From the NCBI GenBank assembly GCA_000004985.1, contig GG738856.1: DNA of 64,000 bases. One strand, 5' to 3'. Position 1 is the stretch's first letter, and every line of letters starts with the position of its first letter. The position numbers and the translations under genes were made by a program. Origin of the DNA: Naegleria gruberi. Its lineage: Eukaryota. The notes below the pieces were generated by a model. It did not search any database. It had not been told where the DNA came from and worked only from the letters and a program-made list of their open reading frames with translations. This document shows positions 2,842 through 39,864 of the stretch, in pieces.

Positions 2842-5800
2842 ATGTTGACTGAAAATAATAATTATCAATCATCGGCAGCAGTTAGTTCTTCCTCTTCATC
2901 ATCAAAGAGACATCAACATCATGATGATGACGACAATGATTATGATGATAAATTTAAAAAGTTTTCTGATCCGACAGAGGCTGCCAAACACACTTTCAGA
3001 TCACTTGATCGAGTTCCAGGATCATCATTCACAATCAGATCTAATAACAATAATACCACTTCTGATAATAATAACAATGAAAATAATCCAATTGATAGTG
3101 GCTTTGGACAGAATCAAAGGAAATTCCCAGAAAAACCATCAGCACACAGAACACCACTACAACAAGTGGGTGACTTTTTCAATAGTTTGATATTCAGTTT
3201 ACTCTATGTTACTGCTGACACAAAGAAGAGATTTTATAGTTTCCTTGTTGGTCTGATTACTATTGCTATTGTTGTGTTTGTTGTCAGTATATTGTACAAT
3301 TCAATTCTGAAAGCAAATTTAATCTTCTTGAAATTATCTGAGGACAATGTTGGAGATGCTGATATAATGTTTACACCAAAATTCACAAATTTAACAACTA
3401 TACCTTTTATTAACAATACCGAGATTAGTGAAAAATTAGCTAATAGTCCTTATATTACTGGCACAACCCCTCGTTGGATTATATTTGCCAATCTACAGAA
3501 TAGAGATCAACCTCAAAAGAATATTAGTGGACTTCTCTTGATTTTGGATACTGAGAGAGAAGAACAATTGGGAATTGGTAGAATATGGCCATACAGACCT
3601 CTTGGAGAAGGAGAAATTCATGTGAGAGATTCTATATTGCGAGCCATTGATGTGAAGCCAAATAGAGGGCAGAGAACTAATCTTGTAATTGATTTTGCCA
3701 GTTTGGCCAGTGCATTCTCTGGAAGTACTGAAGCCATACAGAATGGTGTGGATCCAACTCAACAAAATTTCGATCAAGCTCAATTATTGAGATCTCTTTT
3801 CATTTAAACTTAAAAGTGAAGGGTGAATCTTCTGTTGTTGATTCTATCACCTCCAATTATGCCAAATATCCAAGTGCTCTTGGTAACGTAATGATTATTG
3901 ACAGTCACTATGTAGGTCAAATAATTGAAGAGTCACTATTTGCCTCGCCCTCTACGCAGTTACTTTTGGAAATTACAGGAAATACTCAAAAAATCAAAAA
4001 CTTTTTCAAAACTTTCCCAATAGAACAGTACAGTTTAACTCTAGCAGGTCGACTGAAAGACAGATTCCCAACCTATCTCAAGAGTGATAATGAAAGAAAA
4101 CAAGCAGTTATTGGCATTACCAATGGTATGATGGATAGTATTGGAGTTGCTTATCCAGTCACTTACACTCTTCCACTTTTGAGTGCTTTAGATGGTACCA
4201 AATTTATTTCATTATTTATTGATCAAATCTTTATTGGAGTTGTTGTCATGTTAGCCATTTTGGGTATCATTTTGATTTTTGCCCTCCTTTTGGCCAATGT
4301 TGAGGAGAAAACCTATGAATATGGTATGTTGAGAGCCCTAGGTCTTCGTCAGTATTCTCTTATTCAGGTCATTTTGGCTCAATCCATGTACTTTGCCATA
4401 CCTGCCATCATTATTGCCATGGTACTTGCCTTCTTGGTAAATATTTTGGTTGAGTATGTATTACAAGTTGTTATCAGCACTCCAAGCTTGAATTTGTACT
4501 TCTTCTGGGCTGCAGTTGTAGTTCCAATTGCTCTTGGTTTTGGTATTCCTATTATTGCTAACGTTATTCCAATTAGACATGCTATGAGCAGAACTTTGAG
4601 AGATTCACTTGACATTGCCCATCAAACTTTCAATGAAACCACTGTCAAAATGATCAAACTTGAAGAATTAGGATTGGAACCATGGCAAACTGGTGTATCT
4701 ATTTTATTGGTTATTATTGGTTTTGTAGTTTACTATATGATTCCATATTCATTTATTTTCACTGATCTCCCACTCTTCTTCTTTATTTTGAATGCTATTC
4801 TATTGGGTATGCTTGTTGGATTGTGTATTATTGCTGTCGTATTAGAACCATTCTTTGAGAAGATTATATTGAATTTAATCTTGTGTGGACCTGAAAGAAA
4901 ATTGAAGACTTTAATTTCCAAGAATTTGGCTGGTCACCGTAAACGTAGTAGAAAGACCTTCCTCATGTTTACACTCTCAGTTGCCTTTATTGTTTTTGCT
5001 GGTGTTGTCTTTTCATTGCAATCAGCTAATATTCGTGCAAATGTTGAGGCTTTCCTTGGTGCAGATATTGTTGTCATTTCAACCAATTCACGTTATTCAC
5101 TTCCTAAAGACAAACTCAATGAAGCTATTGCACTCCAAAACAGTAGAAACAAAACGATAGAAGCACCAGTTAAGGGACATGCCTACCAATCATTCAGTAT
5201 TGCTAATATTCCGTTCTTTACTGGTTCTAGATTCTCCTCACTTGCCTATTTCCCTAACAGAAGAGTTGTTTATAATGCAGTGGACAGAAACTTTTTGAGT
5301 GTTGTCAAGAGCAAGTACTTCCTCTACACATACATTGATTCAAGTTTCACGTACAATATCACAGATGAGAAACCAGATGTTTTCCAAAGTTTGTACGATA
5401 ATGCAGGACAAGCTCTTGTTGATGGAGAAAAGGTTGGATTCGCACCAAGTATTGTATACAGTGGTGTAAAACTCAATTTCGAAGACAATTATACCTTAAC
5501 CTTTGATCCAGCCTCTCAATACTCACAATACATTGATATTGTAGCTTCTGAAGCTATGAGACCATCTGTTGGTATTGGAATTAAGACTCCAACCGATTTG
5601 AGATTCTCTGGCATCAATAGTAAGACAGGAACTCAAAATTATGTAGATTTTATTGGCAAGTCAAGATGCCTTGCCTATAAGGTCCCTGGTTTCTTCTATT
5701 CTTCATATGAACTTACTGCTTCTGGTTCTCCTGTTATTATTACTATGGATGCATACAAGAAAATTGCAAGATCAGTCGCTAAATCAGTTGGTCTCACTAC

Positions 5801-6377
5801 TTATAATGATGAAGTTTACTATCAAAAGCTCTTTATCAAGCTCAAAGATGAAATTACAACCTTTGAAGTACAAGACGTTTTCAATGCCTTACAAGCTTCT
5901 GTTAGTTCTGATTTCACAAGTATTCAAAATGTCAGAGATTTGGTTGGTAGTACAGAGACTGCTACACTTGTCCTTATGGCTTTCTTCAACATTGTTGCTG
6001 CTATTGCCATCATTTTGTGCTTCTTCATGTTGGCTGTTTCATTCACTGCTAACGTTAGAGATAACTCTTGGGAATTTGGTGTGTTGAGATCTATTGGTTT
6101 GTCTGTCAATGCACTCATTCGTGCCTATATTTATGAAGCTCTTTGCTTGGTCATTTCGGCCTTTATTTCTGGTACTGTGATTGGTTGTGTAATTGCCTTG
6201 ACATTAACAGCTCAGTTCAACTTGTTCTTGGAGATGCCGTTCCAATTCGATTTCCCATACTACCTCTTCTTCTCTATTCTTATCATGGCTCTCATTTGTG
6301 CCATTCTGGGTAGTTACTTGCCTGCTAGAAATTTGAGAAAGAAGGAAATTGCTCTCGTCATTCGTGGAGCTGAATAA
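2842..6377 (+). CDS. FtsX-like permease family (DUF214/MacB-like) membrane protein with two FtsX domains. ORFs 2842..3807 and 3816..6377 are joined by an apparent +/-1 frameshift near 3732-3815.
   Basis: N-terminal TM (FYSFLVGLITIAIVVFVVSILY) plus an extracellular region in ORF1. ORF2 has two FtsX 4-TM modules (GMLRALGLRQYSLIQVILAQS... and NSWEFGVLRSIGLSVNALIRAYIYEALCLV...PARNLRKKEIALVIRG). No GT...AG candidate lies between the two frames, so this is a frameshift rather than an intron. Confidence 0.75.
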
Positions 6378-6378
6378 A

Positions 6379-8134
6379 TCAATCTTCATAAAAGGTACTA
6401 TATGTATTGTCCAAAAGATCATTCCCCTTAATTATCGAAAAACATTGGTTCGACAAATTAACACAATCCAACATGGGAAAAATTGCATTCTCATATCTAC
6501 ATACAACCTTGCACAAACAAGATAACCATTTAGGAAATCCCATATCTCTTGCCTCTTGATAAACATCAGTATCCTTATCTGCAGAATAACAACAGCAACA
6601 AGTTCCACACCAACACAACGCTATTAGGCAACCATTGCAAAGACCACACAATCTAGATGTACAACATATTTTTGAGTAGCACTTGTCAACAGATCCAGAT
6701 ACAGTCCAAATTTTCAGCTTTACACATTTTTTTTCAATAGCTTGTGACACTTTCATACTAGGAATTGTTGGAAAGTAATAGTGGTGAGAAATGATTACAG
6801 ATTTTTCTCTCTTGAAGATAATCCTCTCAAATTGAATTTCAATCTTATCTTCACTGGTAGAGGTGGAGAATGTTTCATTCTTCTTTTCAATGTTACATTG
6901 TTCTTTTAGCATTTCTTTTGCATAATCACTCATTTCTAGTCCAGAATTGTAAATGTGTCTAAAGAATAGTTCTAAGAGTTTGATTCTTTGGCTATTATTT
7001 AAGGTTTCAAGGGAGACCAATGTGAGAAATTCAGGAAGAATATGAGCCTTAACATTCATGCCAAAGTGGTTATCTTTGAATGACAACTCTGCACTTGTCA
7101 AGCCTTGTTGAGGATGATTTCTCAAAACAATAGGTTTGGTCATATTCTTGATAAATCTTTCCATAATAAAATGATATTTCCTCTCTTGGTTTTGGATTTA
7201 AAAACACATAATGACGTCTGTTTTCTGTGCAAACAATGGAAGTTTCACAGCTAATTTTATCTTTGATAGAGTGATGTAAAGCATAATGTTTAAACTGAAA
7301 GTGTAGAATGGTCTTTCGACAAAGTCGAAACGGATTCATTTTCATATTCTTATCAATGAGCGGTTTTTGCATCCACTCTCCATACAGATCCCTCAACCCT
7401 ATGTGATTCGATACATCTGCTAATAGTTCTTTCCCCTTATTATAATAAAATAATTTGGGAGATGTTGTTGCCAGCTCACTATTCAAAGGTTGACAGTCAT
7501 CAATCGATTTTCCTGACATTATACTTTCCAAATCATCTAACAGATTGTTATCATTAAAATTAAACTCGTACTCTATTTCATCCTCAGATAGTCTTCTGCA
7601 TTGGCTGCCCAAAATTTTTTCCATTATTTCTATAAAACTGTTGGTACTCGTTTCAATATTTTCAGAATTATTTCTATTCTCTTTACCTGGAATGAATATT
7701 TGAAAATAAAGCCTAGGTAAGTAAACACTCTCAATTCTTTCCAACAACTTTTGACTTCTTATTGCTTCCTTAACTGATGCAGCAATTGATTCTTCTTTCG
7801 TTTGAATTCCAATGCTCAAAGATGATGATGACAATGAGGAATTTCCTCTAAATACATTATTAAATAATCGGCATGTTATTCTTAATGATTGAATTTCATA
7901 GGAGCCTCTATTAGGACAATAGGAAAGAATTGAATCGAGTGAATCATGATCCAACTCTATAATATTACATCTTTTCATTGTGTATACACGATTATCATCC
8001 GAAAAAGATTGATACAGAGGAAGATCGTGATTATGTCTACTATTCTCTATAATTGTTGTTACTATCAGCTTATTTTCTTCATCTTCATCAAAAGGAAGAA
8101 TGGGAAGAATTCTATTCTCGGGACATGAAATCAT
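6379..8134 (-). CDS. hypothetical protein with a C-terminal Cys-rich cluster (CCTSRLCGLCNGCLIALCWCGTCCCCY). Two overlapping ORFs (7070..8134 and 6379..7164) are linked by a frameshift or a tiny intron.
   Basis: ATG at 8134. The two frames overlap by 95 nt. A possible 25-nt GT..AG element at about 7105-7130 (non-consensus donor GTTTTG) would join them. No family recognised. Confidence 0.45.
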
Positions 8135-17315: not shown

Positions 17316-18433
17316 TTAAATATAGAATTCATTAAGTGATGTTAATAATTTTGCTTCATCACTAATTCGATTGGCATAAACATAGAGTGATGTTAATTGT
17401 TTCATTCCACTTATGAACTTGGCTCCTTCATCACCAATTTCATTGTAACATATATCAAGTGATGTTAATTGTTTCATTTCACTTATCAATTTGGCTCCTT
17501 CATCAAGAATTATATTGTTAGAAATATTAAGTGATGTTAATTGTTTCATTCCACTGATGAATTCGGCTCCTTCATCATAAATTAGATTGTTAGAAATATC
17601 AAGTGATGTTAATTGTTTCATTTCACTTATGAATTTGGCTCCTTCAACACCCATTGGATTGCTAGAAATATCAAGTGATGTTAATTGTTTAATCTCGCTT
17701 AGATATTTGGCTCCTTTATCATCAATTCCACTCTTATAAATAGTAAGTGATGTTAATTGTTTCATTTCACTTATCAATTTGGCTCCTTCATCACTAATTT
17801 CATTCTTAGAAATATTAAGTGATGTTAATTGTTTCATTCCACTTATGAGTTTGGCTCCTTCAACACCAATTTCATTCTTAGAAATATCAAGTGATGTTAA
17901 TTGTTTCATTTCACTTATAGATTTGACTCCTTCATCATAAATTAGATTTCCAGAAATATCAAGTGATGTTAATTGTTTCATTTCACTTATTAATTTGGCT
18001 CCTTCAACACCAATTCCATTCTTAAAAATATTAAGTGATGTTAATTGTTTCATTTCACTTATTAATTTGGCTCCTTCTACACCAATTTGATTGTCAGAAA
18101 TATCAAGTGATGTCAATTGTTTAATCTCACTTATGAATTTGCCTCCTTCTACACCAATTTCATTGACACCAATACTAAGTGATGTTAATTGTTTCATTTC
18201 ACTTATGTATTTGGCTCCTTCCACACCAATTTCATTGTAATATATATAAAGTGATGTTAATTGTTTCATTTCACTTATGTATTTGGATCCTTCTACACCA
18301 ATTCGATTATTACATATATTAAGTGATGTTAATTGTTTCATTTCACTTATGGGTTTGGCTCCTTCATCACCAATTCGATTGTTAGAAATATCAAGTGATG
18401 TTAATTGTTTCATTTCACTTATGAATTTAGCTC
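17316..18433 (-). CDS. RNI-type leucine-rich-repeat protein (24-aa repeat ISEMKQLTSLDISNNRIGDEGAK). 5' partial, running into the assembly gap.
   Basis: At least 15 tandem 72-nt/24-aa LRR units. The ORF continues into the N run at 18434. Confidence 0.75.
17330..18433. repeat. tandem 72-nt coding repeat (LRR units)
   Basis: The motif agtgatgttaattgtttcat recurs with period 72 nt. Confidence 0.8.
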
Positions 18434-19088
18434 NNNNNNNNNNNNNNNNNNNNNNNNNNNNNNNNNNNNNNNNNNNNNNNNNNNNNNNNNNNNNNNNNNN
18501 NNNNNNNNNNNNNNNNNNNNNNNNNNNNNNNNNNNNNNNNNNNNNNNNNNNNNNNNNNNNNNNNNNNNNNNNNNNNNNNNNNNNNNNNNNNNNNNNNNNN
18601 NNNNNNNNNNNNNNNNNNNNNNNNNNNNNNNNNNNNNNNNNNNNNNNNNNNNNNNNNNNNNNNNNNNNNNNNNNNNNNNNNNNNNNNNNNNNNNNNNNNN
18701 NNNNNNNNNNNNNNNNNNNNNNNNNNNNNNNNNNNNNNNNNNNNNNNNNNNNNNNNNNNNNNNNNNNNNNNNNNNNNNNNNNNNNNNNNNNNNNNNNNNN
18801 NNNNNNNNNNNNNNNNNNNNNNNNNNNNNNNNNNNNNNNNNNNNNNNNNNNNNNNNNNNNNNNNNNNNNNNNNNNNNNNNNNNNNNNNNNNNNNNNNNNN
18901 NNNNNNNNNNNNNNNNNNNNNNNNNNNNNNNNNNNNNNNNNNNNNNNNNNNNNNNNNNNNNNNNNNNNNNNNNNNNNNNNNNNNNNNNNNNNNNNNNNNN
19001 NNNNNNNNNNNNNNNNNNNNNNNNNNNNNNNNNNNNNNNNNNNNNNNNNNNNNNNNNNNNNNNNNNNNNNNNNNNNNNNNNNNNNNNN
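18434..19088. other. assembly gap (655 N)
   Basis: Run of n. Confidence 1.
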
Positions 19089-19148: not shown

Positions 19149-20486
19149 TTAACAAAAGTAGAAATTTATCAAATCTGGAAGTTTTGAAAGCAATTCCAAT
19201 GAATCATCATTCACTGGATTGTTACAAATATCCAATTGAGTTAATTGATGCATTTGAGCAAGTGATTCAGCTCCATCATTTCCAACTCTATTGTCATTTA
19301 TCAAAAGTTCAGTCAATTTGGACATTCCAATAATTAAACCCGTTCCAATATCACCAATTTCATTCTCTCCAATGTCAAGATATAATAATTGGTCCAATTT
19401 ACTTATTGACTTCATTCCCTCATCGCCAATTTCATTGGTATTGATATCTAATTTTGTGAGTTGACTCAATTTGCTTAATGACTTGGCACCTTCTCCGCTA
19501 ATTCGATTATGAGAAATGTCAAGTTCAGTCAATTGTTCCATTATTCCAATATAGTGAGCTCCTTCGTTGCCAAGTACATTGTATCGAATATTAAGTTTAG
19601 TCAATTGATACATTTCACTAATAGCTTTGGATCCATAAGAGCCAATTTCATTATGACTAATTTCTAAGGTGGTCAATTGCTTCATCTCACTAATCAACCT
19701 TGCTCCTTCATCTCCAATTTTACAAGAGCTGATATTAAGGCAAATTAAATTATTGATGTGAAAAAGTGATTTAATGCCCTCAACTCCAATGTGATTTTCA
19801 GAAATTGAAAGATTGGTCAATTTGGTCATCCCACCAATATAACTGGCACCTTCATTGCCTATAAAATTGTTACTGATGTCGAGATCAGTTAATTGAGTCA
19901 TTTCACATATTGATTTGGTTCCTCCTGCATTGATATTGTTTCTGCTAATATTTAGTTTGGTCAATTGAGTCATTTCTCTAATAATTTTTGAACCTCTTTC
20001 AAGTAATTGATTATTGCTGATATCAAGGTCGGCCAAATGAGCGAGATTGCTTATCATATTGGCTCCCTCTGCATTTACCAACCATGAACTAACATCAAGT
20101 TTAGTTAATTTTCCACACATTCGAATAAAATTGCACAACTTTACAGTATCGCTAACTAATGTACCTATTCCAATTTTCATACTCGAAAAACATTCCAAGA
20201 ATTGACTCTTTCTCATCAAGTCAAACATTTCATCATTCCAATGATCCTTGTCAATGTAGTACTGAAATTCAATTGACAGTTTGGCATGCCGTTTAATACC
20301 TGCCATCCACTGCTTGGAAATTAGTACACAACTAGAGAGTATAAATTTCCAATCTCCGTTCAAATAGTTAATTATTTCATAGCAAATGTCATCAGAGAAT
20401 ATTTGATGGCTATCGGAAGGAATTTCAATCTCATAAAACATCTGATGTTTATCAAAAGCAAAATCTTCGGCTGGTAATTGATACAT
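19149..20486 (-). CDS. F-box/LRR (RNI-type) protein
   Basis: N-terminal F-box-like IFSDDICYEIINYL...LISKQW followed by about 12 LRRs with the GxEGAK motif. ATG at 20486. Confidence 0.8.
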   Translation of the reverse strand: MYQLPAEDFAFDKHQMFYEIEIPSDSHQIFSDDICYEIINYLNGDWKFILSSCVLISKQWMAGIKRHAKLSIEFQYYIDKDHWNDEMFDLMRKSQFLECFSSMKIGIGTLVSDTVKLCNFIRMCGKLTKLDVSSWLVNAEGANMISNLAHLADLDISNNQLLERGSKIIREMTQLTKLNISRNNINAGGTKSICEMTQLTDLDISNNFIGNEGASYIGGMTKLTNLSISENHIGVEGIKSLFHINNLICLNISSCKIGDEGARLISEMKQLTTLEISHNEIGSYGSKAISEMYQLTKLNIRYNVLGNEGAHYIGIMEQLTELDISHNRISGEGAKSLSKLSQLTKLDINTNEIGDEGMKSISKLDQLLYLDIGENEIGDIGTGLIIGMSKLTELLINDNRVGNDGAESLAQMHQLTQLDICNNPVNDDSLELLSKLPDLINFYFC

Positions 20487-20530
20487 TTTTTTGAATCTCT
20501 AACAATATTTGTAAAGTAGCACAAATCATT

Positions 20531-21738
20531 CTAGTATTTATTTGAAAAGTAAGAAGAATTGGTGACATCACTTGGTTTTGGTCTATCTTCAGGATTCTTC
20601 TTTAACATTTGCATGACCATATCTACCAATTCAATGGAACAATTTGGAGAGCACTTGATAATATTTTCTCTGACAAGATTTTCTACATCCTTTTCGCTGG
20701 ACATGAGATTGAGATTGAGTTGACGTCTTTGGTGTTCCTTCAAATAGAGTTGAGTAATGCAAGTTTGTCTATCACCAGTCAGGCATTGATAGGCAGTTAC
20801 ACCAAGAGCGAAAATGTCTGTTTGGAAACAATTCTTACCTTGAACAATTGCTTCCCAACTCATGTAGATTGGTGTTCCAGCAAAGCCCATTTGAGTACTG
20901 AGTAGAGTATTTGCATCTCCTGTGACCAATGCTTGACTCAAATTAATATCACTACTGTCTGAAACTCTGGAAATGTTTGCATTATTACTAGTTGCTCCAC
21001 TAGTGGAATTTCTACCTTTCTTTGCCAAACCAAAATCACCCAATACAATATGAATCTGAGAACGGTGATAGTCAAAACTCTTGATAAATATGTTGGAAGG
21101 CTTAATATCTCTGTGAATCATATTGTACTCAGTGTTCATATAATCCAAAGCACTGCAAATTTGATAAATTAAGTGTGAGACGAGTGTTTCTGATAAAACG
21201 GTTTGGCCCAAGTAGCACTGATTGTTCATAAATTGTTCAAAATCTCCCAACTCGTAATAATCCATCTCCATACAAAGCATGTGTTGATTTGCATCAATAA
21301 AAACATCATTCACTCGTACAATATGTGGGTGTACCATTCTTAAAAGGTGTGTGGCTTCTCTGAGAGTTTGGTTAAGTTCATTCAAATCAGAGAAACGAAT
21401 AAGTTTGATGGCTTTCCATTGGAAGTTTTGCTTGGTATCTTGACCCTTGAAAACCAAACCAAATGAACCCTCACCAATTTTCATCAAATTAACAAATCTA
21501 TCAATGAGCATGGATTCACTTCCATTTAGTCTATTTTGAGAAGCATTACTGCTTAATTGAAGATTATTACCTGAAGAATCGTCCATCATACTCTTAGTTA
21601 GAGTCATGGCAGTTGAAACTTGAGAAATATTGAGGAAAGTTCTGATATTACCAGATCTATTAGAATATGGATCACTGCCACTCACAGGAGTTCCAACAAG
21701 ATTCAACTCAAAATTTTTATCCACAGAAAGAGTAAGAN
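20531..21738 (-). CDS. Ser/Thr protein kinase (5' end lost in the gap)
   Basis: GEGSFGLVFKG, AIK, HRDIKPSNIFI, GDFGLAKK and a SWEA-type activation segment. The N-terminus runs into the N gap. Confidence 0.85.
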
Positions 21739-21787
21739 NNNNNNNNNNNNNNNNNNNNNNNNNNNNNNNNNNNNNNNNNNNNNNNNN
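21739..21787. other. assembly gap (49 N)
   Basis: Run of n. Confidence 1.
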
Positions 21788-24700
21788 GTAAAACAAGCAC
21801 AGGTATCAACACCTACGCATAATCCACTACCACTGCAAGCTGATGGATCATTGGCAGATAGTCCAAAACATGAAAAATATTGACAATTTTCACCTGTATA
21901 GCCAGCATTACACATACACAAGTCATTGGCAACACAAGTTCCATTTGCACTACATACTGATGAGTAGCTCCTATCAAGTCCACTACATTTAACTGATGGG
22001 CAAACATTTGGGATGTATGGCGAAGTGAGAACTACGCTGTGGAAAGCTCCTGCTGCAATAGATATGGCAATTCTTGGAGAGTTGTTACTTCCAAACTTGA
22101 ATTCTGCAGATGTAGCTGTCTTGTCGAGTGAAAATCCCAATTGACCATAGTCATTGTTGCCGTAAGCATAAACCATTCCTGTTGAAGTTAATATGACAGT
22201 ATGGAAAGCTCCAGATTGAATATCAGCAATACCTCCGTATGCGTATGGAAAGTTTACAGCAGTCGGAATGGTTACAATAGAACCACCACCATAGAGTGGA
22301 CCCAGTTGTTGGTAATCATTTCTTCCAAAAGCAAGTAACGTTCCATTCCTAGTTAAAATATGTGAATGATAAAAGCCTGCATAAACAGCAACTGGATTAT
22401 CAATTGGAATTTTGATAGGAGACGATGATTTGTCAATACCACTAACACCCAATTGACCATATGTGTTATCGCCAAAAGCAAAAGCTCCCTTTTCTGTTAG
22501 TACTAAAGAATGCTTTGCGCCACAAGAGGTTTGAAAAATCTTACCATTGGCTTGTGAGTTCCAGTTGACCTTTACAAGTTCTGGAGAATTTACCTCATTG
22601 CCAACTCCCAATTGACCATTACCGTTAAATCCAGCTGCATAGAGATTGTTGTTATCATCAGTTACAAGAATATGGTAAGCTCCACAAGTTACATTGGCAA
22701 TAACAACCCCTTTTGGTATTCCATATGGAGGATTTTGGGTAATATAACCACTTGTACCGAGCATGATGAGCTCACTGGTAGAATCTCTAATAGTGAACGC
22801 ATTTTGTAAAGTTGCACAAATCATTCTAGAAGGACTCCTCAATAACTCAATATTAGTTGGGCTGTAGAGCTTCTCTGGTGCGCCATCAATTCCGAACATG
22901 TTGTTGTAATTTAGACCAGAAACAAATGTTCCATTCAAAGATGCAATAAATGTTTGATATGCACCAGTACTAATACTATAATTCATACTACTGCCAAAGT
23001 CCACAACTGCAAATGCGTCTTGAGCCAAATCTGTCGTATATCTAAGGGATCTAGATGATGAGGCGCTTGTAACACCCAATTGACCCATATTGTTCATACC
23101 AAATGCATAAAGCTTGGACTGATTAGCAATAAGGAACGTTGTAAAGTCTGCTGCCTCAATATCTGATACATCACCTCTTACAAAGTTCAATTTTGAAGAA
23201 TATGAAACACCCCTCAAACCAAGTTGGCCGTAGTAATTTGAACCAACAGTATAGGTAGTATTGTCTTGCATGAGAACAACCAAGTGTCTTCTACCACAAA
23301 CCATCTTTAAAACTTGCTTTTGGATAAGAATAGGATCGATTAAAAGTCCAATACCATTAACTCCTCTAAAAGTATTATCAGAAATCCAAATAGTATTATT
23401 GTTCAAAAGAACCGCAAAGAACTTGTCACAAGCCAAAATCTTTGTAATACCGCTGGAAAAATAAAATCTGTCAAGATAATAAGCAGATACAGTGGCCTCA
23501 AACTTTGGGTCTGGCTTTTGGATGCTAAAGCTATCCTTGAAACCTCCAATGGCACTGGTTGATAAATTGACACCAGAAAATGAAATAACCTCTAAAAAGT
23601 TGGAATTTCTAATAATATTTGGATATTTAAAAGCACTCTCTAACTGGCCAAAGAAAATCAAAGAACCTTCATCAGTTAGCATTATAGTAAAGTATCTGGA
23701 TGCTTGAACAGAAATAATGTTTGGCTTCTTTTGTTTTCCCGCAGGACCTTCAATATATCCATTTCTCAAATCAAACTGCAATGGAACGGCTGTTTTGGAA
23801 ACAGGTATAGTTTGAGATGTTCCCAATAACCTTAAAGTGATATTTCCCATTTGTACATTAGCGTTTGATCCAAAGAATGTGAAAAAGTAATTATTGTGAA
23901 CAACAACTGTGTGGTCAGCTCCAGTATCAATAAGAGAAATATTCTTGAGTGGTAATTGATTCCAAGTACCAGCCTTTGTATCTAAACCAAGTTGATATTT
24001 GTTGTTTCTACCGCATGTATAAAGTTGTTTTTCGTTTTTAGTCACTACAACTGTGAACCCGTCACCAGTTAACACATTTCCAATGTTGTCAAAACTTGGT
24101 GCTTGTGCTGTTTGTGGAATTTTGTTTGGTTTCTTTCTAATATCCTTTTTGGTTAGTTCTGGAACTGTCGAAGTGGAACTCTTATCCAAGTCAATAATGT
24201 CGTTATCACTTGGGTCAACCATCACACTTTGATTCAATTCGGTTGATAAACCTAACGAATTATCGTCGTTTAACCCAAATCCAAACAAGTACTTTGTATC
24301 CTTTTCTTCATCACCAATAACAACTGTGTGAGTATAAGAAGTGGCTACCTTCCTCACTCTAATAGTATAATCATCATCACTGATCAGTGCTCTTGGTGGT
24401 TCTTGTGGCTTTCCATTGTTTCCATTGCCATTTCCGTTGCCATTTCCATTGTTTCCATTACCATTTCCATCAGCTATTGTTGTTCTTCCTTTGGATCTTG
24501 TTGTCAGTGAAGGAAAGATAACTAGCCAAGGTTCCAGCACAATATAATTGGCAAAAGTACTAGTGGTTGGTAGTGTAACAACAGTGCCATTACCCAATGC
24601 ACCTGATGTTGGTAAACCAGCTGATAGTATTTGAAAAGTTTGGATAGCTGGATATGGACTACAAGTTACAGGATATGAAGAAAATAATGGTCGTGGCATT

Positions 24701-25323
24701 CCTCTCCTAGCTATTGTAAATAAATCCTGTTCTGCATTCACTATAAAGTAGGAATGAAGATGTTGTTGATTGGTATTGTTATTATTGTTCATGTAGCTAT
24801 CTGTTAATATATTGATATTGAAAATAGTCGATACGAGTAGATAGTAAATACATATTAAATAGGTAAAAATTAGAATAGTTCGTCCTATGAGTGAATATTT
24901 TCCAATAATTGTTGTTGTTGTTGTTGGTGATGATAAATTATATTTTGGTGGTGATTGTTCATCTACTTCTTTAGAATGATGGTGATGAAGGTAGTTTACA
25001 AAATTTTCTTGTTTCCTCAGGGAAACATTCTCGCAACAATTGTAGCAAATAGTATTGCTATTATTATAAAAGCTCGTATTCTTATTCATATTATTCATAT
25101 TATTATTATTGATGGTAGCAGTATTATTAAAACTAGTTATTGATGAAAAATCCGAGCGGATACATTCATGATCATCAAGTTTGGGACGTCCACTCAATGG
25201 ACAGATTTTTATACTCTTGTNCAAACTCAACGACTCTACCTCTATCTTCTCCTTCTCCTCCTGTACTCTTGTTTTGTTCTTGATTAAAAAAGTTGGCGCC
25301 ATTTCTTGTTCCGGTTTCTTCAA
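21788..25323 (-). CDS. type-II membrane protein with an RCC1-repeat beta-propeller and C-terminal EGF-like modules. The C-terminus is truncated by the gap. An upstream Q/N/H-rich ORF at 25320..25661 in another frame may be an N-terminal extension.
   Basis: One TM (IGRTILIFTYLICIYYLLVSTIF). Multiple RCC1 repeats (YxxGxNxxGQLG). EGF-like Cys patterns CSGLDRSYSSVCSANGTCV...CMCNAGYTGENC. A GNGNGNNG run. Confidence 0.7.
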
Positions 25324-27312
25324 TTCTTCTTTAGCTTGCTGCTACCGCTAGTTGTATTATTATTATTTGGTGGTAACAACAACAATGATGATGTTGAATA
25401 GTGTTGTTGTTGTTGTTGTTGTTGGTTATTATGTAAATTCATGATTGCGGAAGAATTAATTACATGATGATGATGGTTAATATTGTGGAAGGAGTTTAAA
25501 TTATTTAATGTTGAAGAATTTGCAGAGAAACAATTAATGTGATTGTTCTCCATTCTCATGGTTAGATGTTGTTGTTGTTTATCGTTGGGTGATGAATATG
25601 CTTGATGTTCATCCGTGTTGTTGTTCTCATGAGAATGACATTGCCCAACGCCAGCCGTCATTTTATTTTTAATTAATTTGAAAGGAAGAACATTCCATTT
25701 TGTGCCAAGATCTTCTGAGATTCAACGTCTCGTTCAAGGTTGGTTGGACAGTTGGTAAGGCATAATAGTGTTTACAAATTTTGAATGTGTTTCTATTGGT
25801 TGAATGCTATTAACTATTATATTATATTATCTAGATTGTTAAATATTATTATTTTTGGAATGAGGTTTGCAAATTGTGACCTATTCGTGCGATTAATTCG
25901 ATGAATGAAACAGTTGGGTCAACCTAATGAGAGTTTACAATATTCATCCTTAACTATTTTTCAAATTTGGAAATATGACATTTGTAACCAATAATATTAT
26001 TTTCATTATTATTAAGAAAATGCAAAAAAATTACTCACAATCTACAGTTTCAAACTAAACTGTAGATTTACATATTCATTTCCAGTACAATCACCCAAGA
26101 TAATAACCCTCAAACAAGATAACAATTGGAAATTTAGTCTAATCACTACTTGAAATGAATCACCGAGAATTTGATATTTCAAAATTGGCAGCCCCAAATT
26201 ATTGTCCTTACTTTTCTAAATTTTGAAGGAGGATTCCCAATTCCATTGAAATAGAGGCGAATAGCAATTTGAGGAAATTATATCAATCCAAATCTAATGT
26301 TTTCAATTGTTCCAACCATTAATTGATGACAAAACATTACAAAATTGATAAACACATCACGACTGGTTGTTTCCTATTGAATGCATGAATCACTCTTACA
26401 ATGGGAGGTTTTCTTTCCTTTAGGAAGATTGGATAACAAATACTATCATGGTATTCAAGACGAATTGAGACGTTTTTAATTTTGGAAGTTGATTGTTTAA
26501 GAAATCTTTTACTAGAATGGATGTCAGATAGCACTGTTTCTTCTAAATTGTTTTTGAGACATGATGTAATCGCAAGAATGTAAAAAACTTACTCCGTTCC
26601 ATTCGAATTGAGTAGGGTAACCCCACTTGCCTCTGTTACATTGCATCTTTAAATAATTTATTTAACAGTATTATTTAAACGTTGGATACTACAACATGAA
26701 TAATACAATGCTAACATTAGCATCAAGAATTGCTCAATATAGATATTAGCCAAAAAAACATGGTTTATTATCTATTGCACCTGAAGATGATCGTAACTGA
26801 ACTTTTTCATGTCAGAGCGAAGGGGTTTAAAATGTGAGTTGCATTCACATAGAATTGACTTTATTGAGGTGCATCTGGCGGTAAACAGTTCGATATCGAC
26901 TGGACCAATTCATCTTTTTTGGATAGTTTAATTGTGTACAACCTTATTATTCAGCAAAAACTAGCCCTACGTAGGAAATTTGCTTAGTCCTCAACATGCG
27001 AACATGCTTCTGTACTTGACAGATGTTATTTTTAATTCACTAAATCTGCAATCCTTCATCAAATTAGACAGTCATGGATTGTGTTGGGATCACAGATTAG
27101 ACCAGGCACTTGTGCGCATGTGTCAGGTTTTTGGCTTTTGTGGCTCAAACAAGTTTTAAATATTGTGTGGGAAAAACTCTCAGAGGAGAAAAACAATTTC
27201 AAAACAAATTGCATCACAGCAATCTTCTCTTGTAAACAACAGCGTTTCGAATAGTGGAAAAGAGATAACAACAACGACAATAGTAATACAGTTCTTGTTA
27301 CAATTCAGTATT

Positions 27313-33440: not shown

Positions 33441-35072
33441 TCAATTATTTGAGTTTTGATAAAAACGTTCTCTAAGTGCTTTGAGAATGGCTTCAGCTCC
33501 TTCATGTAGAATTTCTTTAGAAATTTCGTCTCCATTTTCCCACTTACATTTATCCAAACCAAAAAAGGAAACATTAATCAATTCACAATACTCAACTGGA
33601 ATATTCTCCAAACATGGATTTTCAGCAATATTTAACATTCTTAAATATTTGAGTTTTGACAATTCTTTTGGAAGGTATTTGACATTATTTCTATAAAGAG
33701 AAATTGAAGCCAATTCACTAATTTCGGATAATTCCATTGGAAGGGTTTCGATTTGATTTTTATCAAACCAAAGAGCTCCCATTTGTTTACAATGACTCAA
33801 TTCAGGCGGAACTTGTGTTAACTTATTATTCATGATGAATAATTCATTCAAATTAAGTAAGGAGCAAATTTCTATTGGAAATTCAGATATTTGATTATTG
33901 TTCAAGTTGAGTCGAGTAAGTTTTTTCAAAATTGATAATCCATTGACATGTGTCAGTAAGTTATTGTCAAGATTTAAACTGGATATGAATGTAAAATCCA
34001 AAGTTTGAGTCAATTCTTTTGGAATTTCCAATAATTGTAAACTTTTCAATTCAATAGTGGAACCTCCTTCATTCAAAATCTTTTCCACTTTCATTTCCAT
34101 CCAATTTCCGTCATTATTCAGACTATTATCGTAAAGATTCTCCCATTGATTATTATCTTCCTGATATCGTTCTCCTTTAAATGCTCTTCCACGATCGTGA
34201 GAGCCACGACTTTCCCAAAACCCTTTTTCATTTTCCTTTGAAAATTTGAGTCCACATAAGAATTTACATCCTTTCCAGCCAAATAGTTGAGGAATCATGA
34301 GACGAATGTAACCATGCTCTTTGGAAATGAATTCTTCATTATATTTGAGAGCTAGAAATGAATCTGGTGTGTCCACGTCCTCTCTGTGGACATTCACAAC
34401 ATAACCATCAATTCCTGTTTGAATGAGAAATTTCCAGTCTGGATCTGGTTTTAGATAATTGATAATGGATTGAAAGGAAAGACCTTCCATGTGCATGTCC
34501 ATAACACTCCATGTGGTTACACAATGTAAATCAATTGTATATTTGGATAATGGGATAGATTCAAGTAATTCTGTGAGTGTGATTGTCTTGATCGGATGAT
34601 CATCTCCAAGGATTATTTCAAGTTCCCATGAGTTAATATCCATTTCTGGATGATACCCCAAATCGAGGACAGGCCACTTTTTAACTATTTTTTGGCCTTT
34701 TGGAAGTTTACTATTATCTTCTTCATCGAAAATTTGATAGTTTCCAGTGGTTTTAAAAGTACTTTGTCTTATTCTTTCAAGCTTTTCAATGTGAGATTCG
34801 TCTAATTTTAATTGTCTTTTTGCTTCGTTTACTGTTTTGATTTCCGAAATATTCTTTTGATCAGTGATTTTCTTTGTTACTTGATTCTTGGGTGACGATA
34901 TTTCTCTAGTTCTGCAAATATAAAAAGCCACCATTGATCCAAATATTATTAATGATGAAAATAATGGATTAGATTCAACTGGCAATATTGCAATGGTAAC
35001 GAAAACAAGACAGGCAAAAAATAGAAAATCAAGAGCTTGTGTGTTCATTGTATTTTTTTGATAAAAGTTCAT
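33441..35072 (-). CDS. membrane-anchored protein combining a sulfite-oxidase-family molybdopterin (Moco) domain (YedY/MsrP-like) with C-terminal leucine-rich repeats
   Basis: N-terminal TM ALDFLFFACLVFVTIAILPV. Moco-domain motifs IDLHCVTTWS, GIDGYVVNV and FLALKYNEEFISKEHGYIRLMIPQLFGWKGCKFLCGLKFS. After that come about 9 classical LRRs (LNLDNNLLTHVNGLSILKKLTRLNLNNNQISEFP...). ATG at 35072. Confidence 0.75.
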   Translation of the reverse strand: MNFYQKNTMNTQALDFLFFACLVFVTIAILPVESNPLFSSLIIFGSMVAFYICRTREISSPKNQVTKKITDQKNISEIKTVNEAKRQLKLDESHIEKLERIRQSTFKTTGNYQIFDEEDNSKLPKGQKIVKKWPVLDLGYHPEMDINSWELEIILGDDHPIKTITLTELLESIPLSKYTIDLHCVTTWSVMDMHMEGLSFQSIINYLKPDPDWKFLIQTGIDGYVVNVHREDVDTPDSFLALKYNEEFISKEHGYIRLMIPQLFGWKGCKFLCGLKFSKENEKGFWESRGSHDRGRAFKGERYQEDNNQWENLYDNSLNNDGNWMEMKVEKILNEGGSTIELKSLQLLEIPKELTQTLDFTFISSLNLDNNLLTHVNGLSILKKLTRLNLNNNQISEFPIEICSLLNLNELFIMNNKLTQVPPELSHCKQMGALWFDKNQIETLPMELSEISELASISLYRNNVKYLPKELSKLKYLRMLNIAENPCLENIPVEYCELINVSFFGLDKCKWENGDEISKEILHEGAEAILKALRERFYQNSNN

Positions 35073-35081
35073 CAATATTTA

Positions 35082-38000
35082 TTACATCATCAATACAGCA
35101 ACCAAGGCCAAAATGAGCATCAAAGCGTTAACAGCAACATTAGAACTTGCATTAACTTTGGTACTCTTCACTGGAGTTACAGTTGAAGGTTTTGGAGTTG
35201 TTGAAGAGCCTGGTGTAACAGTGGTTTGAGAAGTAATGATATAAGTACCAGTGCTTGAAACAGAAGCAGTGATAGTACCGTCGTTGTTCGTAGTTAAGGT
35301 GCATCCAGAGGCAGTTTCATACGTGTTAGTAACAGTATTGAGTACCTTACATGTGTTGACAGTTTCCATCAAAGTTCTTGATTTCTTTGTGAGTTCAAAG
35401 ACCAAATCAGCAATAGAAGAAGAATTAGAAACAGTGACAGCAGTTCCATCAACCAACTTGAAATCAATAGCCTTAGTAATAGTATTATCAACACCAGTAA
35501 CATCAATAACTTTAGCCATAACATTGACAGTCTTGAGAGAAGCAATTTGACTCAATTGAGCAAACTTGGAAGATAACTTGATCTTATTGTTACCAAGAAT
35601 CTTTTCAGAGAGGGAGTTCAAGGTAGCAATGTTAACCTTACGAGTAAGAGTTGTTACACCACCAGCATTAACAATGGTAGATGGCAAGTCAGCAATAGTG
35701 TCCTTAACAGACAAAGTTGCCAAATTGGTATAAACAGTGTTAATGTTTGCAAGGTCAACCTTACTGAAAACTCTCTTTCTTTGTTGACCTTTTTGAATAA
35801 CTTCAAGGAATTTGTCAGCAGATTTCTTTACATTGTCAATCATTTCACTTCCAAGTTCGATGCCGTTAGTGTTAACATTTCCTGTAGTATTTGCGAGACT
35901 GTCAACAACCTTGGCTGTAGTACTATCAGCAACCATTCCAGAAGAAACAGAAGTACTGAATGATGAAGCAAAAGACAGACCATTTTCAGCAGAGCTCTTG
36001 GAAACAGAAATACTATCAGTTTTGGCTTGTTGGTCTAGGAAGGCATCTGCAATAGCAGAAGCAGCTTGCTTGATAGAATCAATTTGTGAAGAGTTCAACT
36101 TGTTAATATCAACACTACCAATAACAGACATGGCAGATGAAGCAGCAGACAATGTGACAGTACCCTTAGAGGTGGCCATTGAAGACAAGGCAGAAACAGA
36201 TTCTTCAGCAGATGGCTTGGTAATAGTAACATCAAAAGTAGCATATGAAGAAGCACCCAAAAAGTCGTACACAACAGCCTTAACAGTCAAAATATTACCA
36301 GATGTTGGTGCTGGGAGTGAGATACTTGCGGATGGTTCTTCAGTTCTGTCAGTAAGAGGGTTCCACTTGTTACCCTTGTTATCGTAGAACATGAATTGAT
36401 AAGTCAATGGTGTTTGAGGATCAGACCAACCATTACCACACTTGATATCGAAAATATCGCTCAAAGCTTTACCAGTGATTGGATAGACATCGAATTGACC
36501 TTGAGTTGGTGGAGAGTTGACAGTGAATGTAACCTTAGCAGAACCTTCCTTGACACCATCAGTGACAGCCAAAGAAACAGTATATGAGTCACCTGGAGAA
36601 AGCAAGCTGGATGGAATCTTCAAATAGCTTGAAGTGGTGGAGGTATTAGTGTTGAGTTCAAAGTTTTCAGCAGACCAAGTAAATGATGGGCTTGATAATT
36701 GAACACCCCATGTAGTATAGGTCAAATACAAGTCCTTAGATGGATCAACAACAGTCAAGTCAACATTTGAAGTAATTGAAACTTTGAGAAGAGTATCCTT
36801 TGCTTGCTCAAGGAGAGTAACAAACAAGTAACGAGTAGCACCTCTTGATCCCTTAGTTACAGTTGCAGTGAATTGGTATGCTCCAGCAGTGAATTGAGTG
36901 CTTGTGAATGAAGAAACATATCCAGGTTGAATGGTACAGTCTTGGCCATTAGTCAAATCATAACAAGTGATGGATACATTTTGGGCATCATTGGTATTAC
37001 TTGGATCAACAACCTTAATATTAAATGAAATTGGATCTTGATTAGATTGAATAACATTGTCAATGGAATAGGAGAGGATCAATGGTTGAGCAATAGCAGT
37101 TACCTTGATTGAGGTTGAGGATGATTCTGCTCCATTAGCTGTGGCAGTGACTGTAAAGTAGTAATCACCTTCTTGATTAATTTCAGTAAATCCCTTACCA
37201 AGGACCAGCATTCCATTCTTTGTTTTTGGTGTAACAATGGATGCAGATTGAGAAGCATCTAAAGTATAACTGTATTGAACTTGACCATTTCCGTTGTAAC
37301 AGGATGGGAATTTGATAATTGGATTAATAGTTGAAACAGAACCAATCATAAACTTGCTTTCAGCACCTTGCTTAATGAACACAGCTGGAACAGCATTGGC
37401 AATAACTGTGAAAGAGAAGGACTTGGTATCCGATTTACCGAAACTACTGGTGACAGTAACAGAAACAATGTAAGTACCAGCAGACAAACCGAGCTCGTTC
37501 AATTTGATTCTCAATCCACCTCGAGTTTCACTCTTGATAGCAGTTGAGAGCTTATCTTCATCTGAACTTGATGGTCCCGAAGCAACAGACCAGGAGAAAG
37601 TTAATGGACGACGATCCAAAGAAACTGAACCATAAGCATTCAAGAACAAATCATCGCATGTTGAAACAACGCTCTTGTCACCAATCAAGGAAACAGTTGG
37701 TGAAGCAGCAATGAATTCACCACTTTGAACTTCTGCATTAGTAGCTTCCTTACTACCTGGATATTTCAATGGTCTAAGAACATCTGAGGTAGTAACAGCA
37801 GCATTAGGTCCCAAAATTACTTCCAAAGTGCTCTTGTCAGTATTGAAAACACATTGAGATCTATCACCAAGCTTTAAAACATCTTGGAAGATTTGATCAC
37901 ATGGAATTGGTCTCTTGAGGGTGGAGTAAACAGTTGCAACAAGTCTGTCACCGTTGGCATTGAACTTGAGAGAGGATGTATCAAATTTATAGTCACAATT

Positions 38001-39864
38001 ATCACCAGCATATTGGTTGAGACAAACACCTGGAGCACATTTAGCAGCTGGGTCAACATTTGGACTATTACAAGTGCAAGAGCCATCATAGGTACAAGTT
38101 CCTCTACCATTGCAAGTGGATGGGTTACAAGAAATTGAACAATTTGCACCAACAAATCCACCAATACACTTTTCACAATATTCACCAGCATAATTTCCAT
38201 CACATTTACATTTCAAACCTTGACATTTACCCTTGCCACCACAAGTACCAGCATCTGTACACACTGGTTCTTTACAATCATCTCCCTTAAATGCAGGACT
38301 ACAACTAGAACAATTACGAGAACCAGTCCAAGCAGAATCACATTGACAAGTATCTGGACCAACACACTTACCGTGTTGAGAACAAGCATATTGACTATTT
38401 CTATCAACACCATGGCATGAGAATGATTGACAAGATGATCCTTCGAAACCAGCCAAGCATTTACAAGCATTTGGACCTTGGCATGAACCCTTACCATTAC
38501 ATACTGATCTATCAGTAGCTGGAGTATTGTAACATATTGGAATTTCACAATTTGCACCAGTGTATCCAGCAATACACTTCAAACAGTAGGTGCTAGGATC
38601 AAAATTACCTCTACATTGACAAACGTCGACATCAGTACATTTACCATTGAAGGAACAACCACCAGCTTGTTCAGTCTTACCATTACAAGTTTTGATATCG
38701 CATTCAATTCCTGAATAACCAGCTTTACAATTACAAGTATTTGGAGCAACACATTTACCTTTGCCACCACAAACTTGAGCCTCATCTTGAGGTTTACCGA
38801 AACAAGTTGNNNNNNNNNNNNNNNNNNNNNNNNNNNNNNNNNNNNNNNNNNNNNNNNNNCAGTTCCATTCACACAGCACCATTCTTACATTGAATATTAG
38901 CACATGGATCAACTGGACCTGGTGGAGGATTTGGATTGCTTCCATTATTATTAGTATTATTATTACCTGGATTTGGATTAGGTGTTGGACTACTTCCATT
39001 ATTATTATTATTATTAGGATTTGGATTTGGGTTGCTTCCATTGTTGTTGGTGTTATTATTACCTGGATTTGGATTAACAACTTGATCACAATGAGGACCA
39101 GTGAAACCTTGTTGACATTCACATGTTCCATTCACACAAGTACCATTACCACAGTGAATATTAGCACATGGATCAACTGGACCTGGTGGAGGATTTGGAT
39201 TGCTTCCATTGTTATTAGTATTATTATTACCTGGATTAGGATTAGGTGTTGGACTACTTTCATTATTGTTATTAGTATTATTATTAGGATTTGGATTTGG
39301 ATTAGGGTTAGGATTTGGGTTGCTTCCATTGTTATTGGTATTATTATTACCTGGATTTGGATTAACAACTTGATCACAATGAGGACCAGTGAAACCTTGT
39401 TGGCATTCACATGTTCCATTCACACAAGTACCATTACCACATTGAACATTGGCACATGGATCAACTGGACCTGGTGGAGGATTTGGATTACTGTTGTTAT
39501 TATTTCCAAGAACTACTTCACAATGAACACCATCAAAACCTTGATTACATTCGCACATACCAGAGGTCATGTTACAAACACCATGACCGCAATCAGAATT
39601 ATTAGAGCACAAAGGTGCACAGAGAGTATCATTATAATAGTAGCTAAGACTTCCATCGCAGCCACATGTGCCATTAAGACACACCAAATTTACACCATTC
39701 ATAGTTTGATTGAGTACATTATCATAGAAAGGATAATTACACTCAGAATCATTTTGGCACCCTTTCACTACAAAGCCATTAAGCAACAGCAGTGTAGAAA
39801 ACAGGGACACCAAAGCAAATACAAAAGTTAGCCTTGTTGTCTGCATATTTTTTCTTGAGGTCAT
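35082..39864 (-). CDS. giant secreted/type-I membrane protein: signal peptide, N/P-rich linker plus EGF-like module x3, tenascin-type EGF array, long Thr/Ser-rich beta-rich (Ig/TIG-like?) region, C-terminal TM. Interrupted by a 50-N gap.
   Basis: Signal peptide MQTTRLTFVFALVSLFSTLLLLNG. Repeated ...DPCANIQCGNGTCVNGTCECQQGFTGPHCDQV. A further EGF array (CNGKGSCQGPNACKCLAGFEGSSC...). C-terminal TM VAVNALMLILALVAVLMM. The frame changes across the gap. Confidence 0.75.
38810..38859. other. assembly gap (50 N)
   Basis: Run of n. Confidence 1.
38880..39520. repeat. three tandem copies of a coding repeat of about 265-277 nt (NPNP-rich linker plus EGF module)
   Basis: cacatggatcaactggacctggtggaggatttggatt recurs at 38903, 39168 and 39445. 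Confidence 0.8.

Follow-up and report, generated by a model that had tools for sequence, protein, structure and literature searches.

A receptor-like Ser/Thr kinase with an RCC1/EGF ectodomain, very probably encoded by a single gene across an assembly gap in Naegleria gruberi

In the 64,000-nt stretch of the Naegleria gruberi NEG-M genome compared here (the window), two minus-strand open reading frames (ORFs) meet at a run of undetermined bases (N). The ORF at 21703-25323, which carries RCC1-like repeats and EGF modules, runs into the N block, while the ORF at 20531-21796, which carries a Ser/Thr kinase, exits from the block and is open right to its edge. Are these the halves of one receptor-like kinase, or do they belong to two neighbouring genes? 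The original prediction placed the gap and the abutting ORFs where they are indeed found, except that the gap is 50 N and not 49 N long, and it suggested a possible single receptor-like kinase. The results obtained for the interval 20531-25661 of the minus strand make it very probable that this is one intron-less N. gruberi gene for a receptor-like Ser/Thr kinase of approx. 1770 amino acids (aa).

If there were two genes, the gap would contain the end of a type-II anchored RCC1/EGF surface protein and the start of a separate gene for a cytosolic kinase. This would agree with the different frames of the two ORFs across the 50 N, and a Met (MTLTKSMMDD) about 20 aa before the kinase domain could serve as the start of the second gene. 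However, another N run of the window, at 38810-38859, is also exactly 50 N long. The length of such runs is thus a fixed placeholder that tells nothing about the missing sequence, and since the gap length is a placeholder, the apparent frame difference is uninformative as well.

The gap could be closed with a 6790-bp contig of an ENA metagenome assembly (ERZ929261, run ERR1078381), called L001 in the following. Positions 1-3945 of L001 match the window from 25731 to 21788 with 98.5% identity and positions 4183-6775 match it from 21737 to 19145 with 99.0% identity. The alignment is collinear over 6.5 kb, the downstream leucine-rich repeat (LRR) gene included, and it stops exactly at both gap edges. 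The unaligned stretch of L001 is 237 nt long, a multiple of three, and joins the two window ORFs into one frame; it contains no stop codon and no intergenic sequence. L001 encodes a 1772-aa protein (P0067) as one uninterrupted ORF, and this protein falls into the same 90% cluster as the N. gruberi reference protein XP_002679892.1. An exact 36-nt search for the gap fill in the JGI metagenome contigs gave no match.

Across the junction the filled protein reads ...CACF-TNATGTRCQTSTHTESDLALSIALPLSLTFAMLLVLGFIFLAISLALFFKKEKKKKLEERETSSGTESVNNNHKTDLESN-LTLSVDK.... The fill encodes the end of the second EGF module (...TNATGTRC), a transmembrane (TM) helix, TM2 (LALSIALPLSLTFAMLLVLGFIFLAISLALFF), the polybasic motif KKEKKKK and the start of the juxtamembrane segment. 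The sixth cysteine of EGF2 is supplied by the fill at the x8 spacing also seen in EGF1. TM2 is the most hydrophobic 19-mer of the 1772 aa (Kyte-Doolittle 2.81), and the KKEKKKK after it is of the stop-transfer type, with 6 K/R in the next 15 residues. The TM helix that was to be looked for in the missing segment is therefore present in the fill, whereas the outcome named beforehand as refuting a single gene, a stop codon and an intergenic region with a separate kinase start, was not seen in this closure, which comes from a different strain. The features of the locus are as follows (all on the minus strand except the gap).

25320-25661: low-complexity N/Q/H-rich N-terminal coding segment, starting with MTAGVGQ...; in frame with the main ORF in L001
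21788-25323: main 5' part with the cytoplasmic N-region, the signal-anchor, RCC1-like repeats, EGF1 and five EGF2 cysteines; open to the gap
24808-24882: TM1, signal-anchor (RTILIFTYLICIYYLLVSTIFNINI), Kyte-Doolittle above 1.6
22021-24285: RCC1-like repeat region, from a blade hidden Markov model (HMM); best Pfam stretch 22021-22710
21883-21987: EGF1, C-x10-C-x5-C-x5-C-x-C-x8-C
21790-21870: EGF2, first five cysteines with the spacing of EGF1; the sixth lies in the missing segment
21738-21787: placeholder gap of 50 N, no strand, standing for 237 nt (79 codons)
21707-21816: artefactual 110-nt "intron" of XP_002679892.1, from a cryptic GTAGGT to TTTGAG round the gap
21491-21737: cytoplasmic juxtamembrane region, holding the orthogroup-conserved motif NIRTFLNISQVSTAMTLT (21596-21649)
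20546-21490: Ser/Thr protein kinase domain with GEGSFG, AIK, HRDIKPSN, DFG and GTPIYMSWE
20531-20533: stop codon of the gene, TAG

With the kinase fragment as query, an exhaustive HMMER search revealed the orthologues of the gene and the family to which it belongs. Two proteins are 67% identical to it in the kinase, XP_044552277.1 of N. lovaniensis (1724 aa) and the 1399-aa P0080 encoded on another ENA contig, and both carry RCC1, EGF and kinase. At the junction both contain EGF2, the TM helix, KK(D/E)(R/K)..K, SEERETSSGTES (as it reads in N. lovaniensis) and S(L/V)DK(E/N). The reading as a single receptor-like kinase was thus borne out by the in-frame fill of L001 and by a junction common to the N. 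lovaniensis orthologue and a third contig. Between the gap edge and the kinase domain the protein sequence is conserved among the orthologues, the guanine-cytosine (GC) content is 0.39 in the fill vs. 0.23 in the true downstream intergenic spacer, and each of the three intact orthologues is present as one ORF or one gene model. All of this argues against two separate genes, which is already refuted for the sister strain and has a practically negligible probability for NEG-M. The single-gene model predicts that ...TGTTTTAC-CAATGCTACCGGT...GGAGTCCAA-TCTTACTC... is read in frame across the NEG-M gap.

The ectodomain is 100% identical to the N. gruberi NEG-M protein XP_002679892.1 (EFC47148.1, D2V8B1), which is 1485 aa long and is named "serine/threonine protein kinase". 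This model already fuses both halves, with ...SGSGLC followed directly by LNLVGTPV..., and skips window positions 21707-21816 as a phase-0 intron. Hence the fusion of the RCC1/EGF and the kinase halves is not new as annotation, but TM2 is spliced out in the public model. Could that model be correct, with the gap lying inside a real intron and the protein consisting of RCC1, EGF and kinase without a second TM helix? GT and AG dinucleotides do flank the 110 nt, in phase 0. In L001, however, the supposed intron is 297 nt long and consists of 99 open codons, for which the chance of no stop is 0.0017 at its composition; its other two frames contain 3 and 9 stops. The closed stretch completes EGF2 with canonical spacing and encodes a TM helix and a polybasic motif that are kept by the orthologues and by nearly all close paralogues. 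Without it, the kinase and the disulphide-bonded EGF modules would end up on one side of the membrane. When the four sequences are aligned, only the public NEG-M model shows a hole at the junction. Since the closed stretch is open, conserved and coding, the intron of the public model is regarded as artefactual, and the correctness of XP_002679892.1 is highly improbable. The false intron deletes the end of EGF2, the TM helix and the start of the juxtamembrane segment. It is because the placeholder gap was bridged in this way that the databases show a kinase without a membrane-spanning helix.

The anchored RCC1 and EGF protein expected on the minus strand was found, with RCC1 Pfam matches, the hydrophobic segment at 24808-24882 and two EGF modules. 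The ectodomain ORF of the window matched the RCC1-like domain PF25390 (2.4e-89, 300.7 bits, cutoff 150), RCC1 PF00415 (3.9e-49, 165.4 bits, cutoff 21.7) and RCC1_2 PF13540 (6.6e-51, 169.3 bits, cutoff 22). EGF_2 reached 20.5 bits in the window fragment and 23.8 bits in the gap-closed protein (cutoff 22.1), and EGF_Teneurin, which was below its cutoff of 24.3 bits in the fragment, reached 29.7 bits in the gap-closed protein. With the blade HMM 13-14 repeats were detected in each of the three orthologues. The propeller region of approx. 930 aa contains just 7 cysteines, irregularly spaced. By sequence the solved relatives of the ectodomain are HERC1, RPGR, UVR8 and RCC1. An AlphaFold model of the ectodomain was used for the fold class only, and Foldseek matched it to UVR8, RCC1 and HERC2 (E ~1e-24, target-normalised TM-score 0.64-0.73). 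These matches support the RCC1 fold, and the blade count suggests, without proving it, that two seven-bladed propellers make up an extracellular region of about 1000 aa, followed by the EGF modules.

Only two segments of the 1772-aa protein exceed a Kyte-Doolittle value of 1.6, namely TM2 and the N-proximal anchor TM1. The latter lies at residue ~262 in the gap-closed N. gruberi protein and at ~174 in N. lovaniensis. K/R residues stand on its N-side, and the region that it would place outside holds 16 N-glycosylation sequons and the EGF modules, which are of the disulphide type. Since positive charges precede TM1 and follow TM2, both termini would be cytoplasmic, and we infer that the RCC1/EGF region is extracellular.

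Several points weigh against the gene being an intact, single, two-pass receptor in NEG-M. The closing sequence comes from another strain or population, 1-1.5% divergent, and not from NEG-M, so that a private disruption of NEG-M could hide in the gap. Compared with L001, one nucleotide is deleted from the window at 25323 (TTT to TT), which detaches the 113-codon N-terminal ORF 25320-25661, and the window has an ambiguous base (n) at 25221. The ectodomain model, built with 18 sequences, reaches a mean pLDDT of 56.5, with confidence limited to the C-terminal propeller. Since this is a mediocre model, the two seven-bladed propellers are not established. As regards topology, it is not certain that the N-terminal extension is translated: the deletion at 25323 cuts off its first 113 codons, 25098 is the start in the public model, and in N. 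lovaniensis a Met stands immediately ahead of the hydrophobic segment. For these reasons the protein could be a type I receptor with a signal peptide cleaved after initiation at a downstream start, instead of a two-pass protein.

The same differences from L001, together with several indels in the 5' low-complexity part, would also be expected if the NEG-M allele were damaged, i.e. a pseudogene or a truncated gene in which the gap and the 25323 frameshift were real lesions. Against this, the remaining indels come in multiples of three or add up to one, as in the case of the compensating 1-nt and 5-nt deletions at 25183-25188. The two halves are open for 1178 and 401 codons, and the full receptor would still be obtained from a downstream ATG (25302 or 25098). 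Between the window and L001 the ratio of synonymous to non-synonymous differences is 5:3 in the ectodomain and 7:1 in the juxtamembrane and kinase part, 12:4 in total. A damaged allele is thus considered very unlikely, although somewhat less so than the two readings weighed above. The deletion at 25323, the n at 25221 and the indels at 25183-25188 could be sequencing errors or strain differences.

A 27-nt direct repeat with 26 of 27 positions identical, for which no occurrence is expected by chance, was also noticed in the gene. The copy at 20508-20534 spans the stop codon and the first 23 nt of the 3' flank, and the copy at 22803-22829 lies inside the RCC1 coding region (...SRMICATLQN...). 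L001 reads A at window position 20518, which removes the sole mismatch.

What kind of kinase does this single gene encode? The kinase ORF of the window matched Pkinase PF00069 (7.6e-40) over profile positions 3-263 of 263. The original prediction had described the kinase as lacking its N-terminus; sequence is in fact absent there, but only from the segment upstream of the domain. The domain has the G-loop (GEGSFG), the Lys of AIK, the alphaC Glu, HRDIKPSN and DFG, none of which varies across the aligned family. Judged from these residues, the kinase is predicted to be catalytically competent. The activation segment between DFG and GTP is approx. 50 aa long in this orthogroup and short in the paralogues. 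The juxtamembrane segment of about 110 aa contains the conserved, orthogroup-specific motif NIRTF(L/M)N(I/L)SQVSTAxTLT. The best solved matches, both with the single sequence and with the family profile, were NEK1/2/7, ULK1/2/3, STK24/25 and CDPK. NEK1 was the top genuine match (3.8e-47) and ULK1 was nearly equal (6.6e-46). No plant receptor kinase or IRAK was found among the best 60 matches listed for the kinase.

A word-index search with the kinase fragment gave mostly bacterial kinases, approx. 27-32% identical. Since it missed the fragment's own 100% match, the absence of a match in that search is not evidence. The HMMER search placed the next relatives of the kinase at 37-47% identity, and every named one is from N. 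gruberi, N. lovaniensis or N. fowleri. Nearly all of the full-length closest relatives have a strong TM helix 60-130 aa before the C-terminal kinase, and most have an N-terminal signal peptide; the gap-damaged XP_002679892.1 is the exception, without a helix before the kinase. Among 24 such proteins the kinase was detected in all, EGF_2 in 16, NHL in 13 and RCC1 in three, these three being the present gene and its two orthologues. An NHL match is absent from the gap-closed protein and from both orthologues. From these domain counts the gene is regarded as the RCC1-bearing branch of a family of propeller-EGF-TM-kinases.

The paralogues XP_002678153.1 and XP_002672252.1 of N. gruberi, XP_044550582.1 of N. 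lovaniensis and XP_044565022.1 of N. fowleri, whose kinase domains are 37-45% identical to the present one, share with this gene the large beta-propeller ectodomain and the EGF module(s) right before a strong TM helix. They differ from it in having an NHL-type instead of an RCC1 propeller and a short activation segment, and they lack the juxtamembrane motif of this orthogroup. In most of them a signal peptide occupies residues 1-20, while the hydrophobic segment is internal in the present protein. The combination of RCC1, EGF and kinase, which the original prediction called unusual, is therefore only partly so: RCC1 is the odd one among the propellers of the family, but a family of propeller-EGF-TM-kinases exists and the plant CRINKLY4 offers an analogue. 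A description of the Naegleria family was not found in the searchable literature, using the ENA project accession and RCC1/NHL receptor kinases as queries.

In CRINKLY4 (CR4/ACR4) the extracellular part consists of a propeller with seven blades, a distant relative of RCC1, and of a cysteine-rich domain; a single TM helix connects it to a Ser/Thr kinase in the cytoplasm (PMC4617170; bioRxiv 10.1101/2020.08.10.245050). One classification of plant receptors includes an "RCC1-RLK" class (PMC9603095). Like CRINKLY4, the present gene encodes a propeller, a cysteine-rich module and a single TM helix before the kinase. However, the single propeller of CRINKLY4 is built from crinkly repeats whose cysteines are regularly spaced, whereas about 14 canonical RCC1 blades with few cysteines are found here, and the cysteine-rich domain of CRINKLY4 stands where an EGF-type module stands here. 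The preprint abstract calls it just a cysteine-rich domain; it is of the TNFR-like type, and the CR4 kinase is of the RLK/Pelle type. No CR4 chain was present among the solved matches of the ectodomain at E<=1e-5. Membership in the CRINKLY4 group was rejected, as crinkly repeats, the CR4 cysteine-rich domain and the features of an RLK/Pelle kinase are all missing. CRINKLY4 is the closest known analogue, and on the domain features compared its likeness to the present gene is best read as convergent architecture and not as family membership.

The second system with which the gene can be compared is NEK8/NEK9, which also combine a NEK-like kinase with RCC1 repeats in one polypeptide, and NEK1 and NEK2 rank high among the solved matches of the present kinase. 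NEK8 and NEK9 are cytosolic, with the kinase N-terminal and the RCC1 repeats C-terminal. Here the order is reversed, the RCC1 part would be extracellular, and EGF and a TM helix lie between. A cytosolic RCC1 and kinase protein of the NEK8/9 type was rejected because the domains stand in another order and because EGF modules and two TM helices are present.

The best non-self matches of the ectodomain were bacterial secreted multi-propeller RCC1-repeat proteins, 22-28% identical over up to 68%. In these extracellular proteins of several domains the repeats are accompanied by Ig-like or T9SS domains, without EGF, TM or kinase. Their high scores may reflect no more than repeat number.

By analogy with known receptors, we infer a mode of action in which the propellers would bind an extracellular ligand. 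Binding would cluster the receptors, and the RD-type kinases would trans-phosphorylate the long, Ser/Thr-rich activation segment and signal inward. A more far-reaching proposal is tentative and, taken as a whole, rather doubtful: heterolobosean amoebae would have invented, independently, a family of receptor Ser/Thr kinases on a NEK/ULK-like scaffold, and in this orthogroup a tandem extracellular RCC1 propeller would have taken the place of the usual NHL propeller; secreted RCC1-repeat proteins of bacteria are a possible source of it. The product would be an unusual two-pass protein with both ends cytoplasmic, which would sense bacterial prey or signals from conspecifics.

The closure is mainly a repair of the assembly and of the annotation, in which the reference protein XP_002679892.1 (D2V8B1) proves to be mis-modelled. 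It also exposes a lineage-specific Naegleria family of propeller-EGF receptor Ser/Thr kinases, members from the pathogen N. fowleri included. The family would add another independent origin to those of receptor kinases outside animals and plants, and the present gene would be one of the rare cases among eukaryotes in which a canonical RCC1 propeller is extracellular; no new signalling principle is implied.

As for the surroundings of the gene, no paralogue of the receptor kinase was found within the window, the other large ORFs of which are of the LRR, F-box/LRR, EGF/REJ, FtsX-like and RGS types. The GC content of the window is ~33%, and poly-N/Q tracts occur in it. Genes with ribonuclease-inhibitor-type LRRs (LRR_6) are present at 19149-20486 (minus strand), 17316-18413 and 61122-63149, one of them with an F-box. 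The LRR gene directly downstream of the kinase shows 10 non-synonymous and 6 synonymous differences from the sister strain and is far less constrained than the receptor kinase. A 655-N gap lies at 18434-19088 between two LRR genes, and the ORFs called across it are spurious, produced by translating N.

The 50 N at 38810-38859 sit between two EGF-rich minus-strand ORFs, 35082-39131 and 38869-39864, the downstream one of which also has a REJ domain (6.5e-46). The two are probably one large surface-protein gene split by the assembly. Finally, in the minus-strand ORF 33441-35075 leucine-rich repeats occur together with a molybdopterin-binding oxidoreductase domain (1e-20), a combination that is not common.

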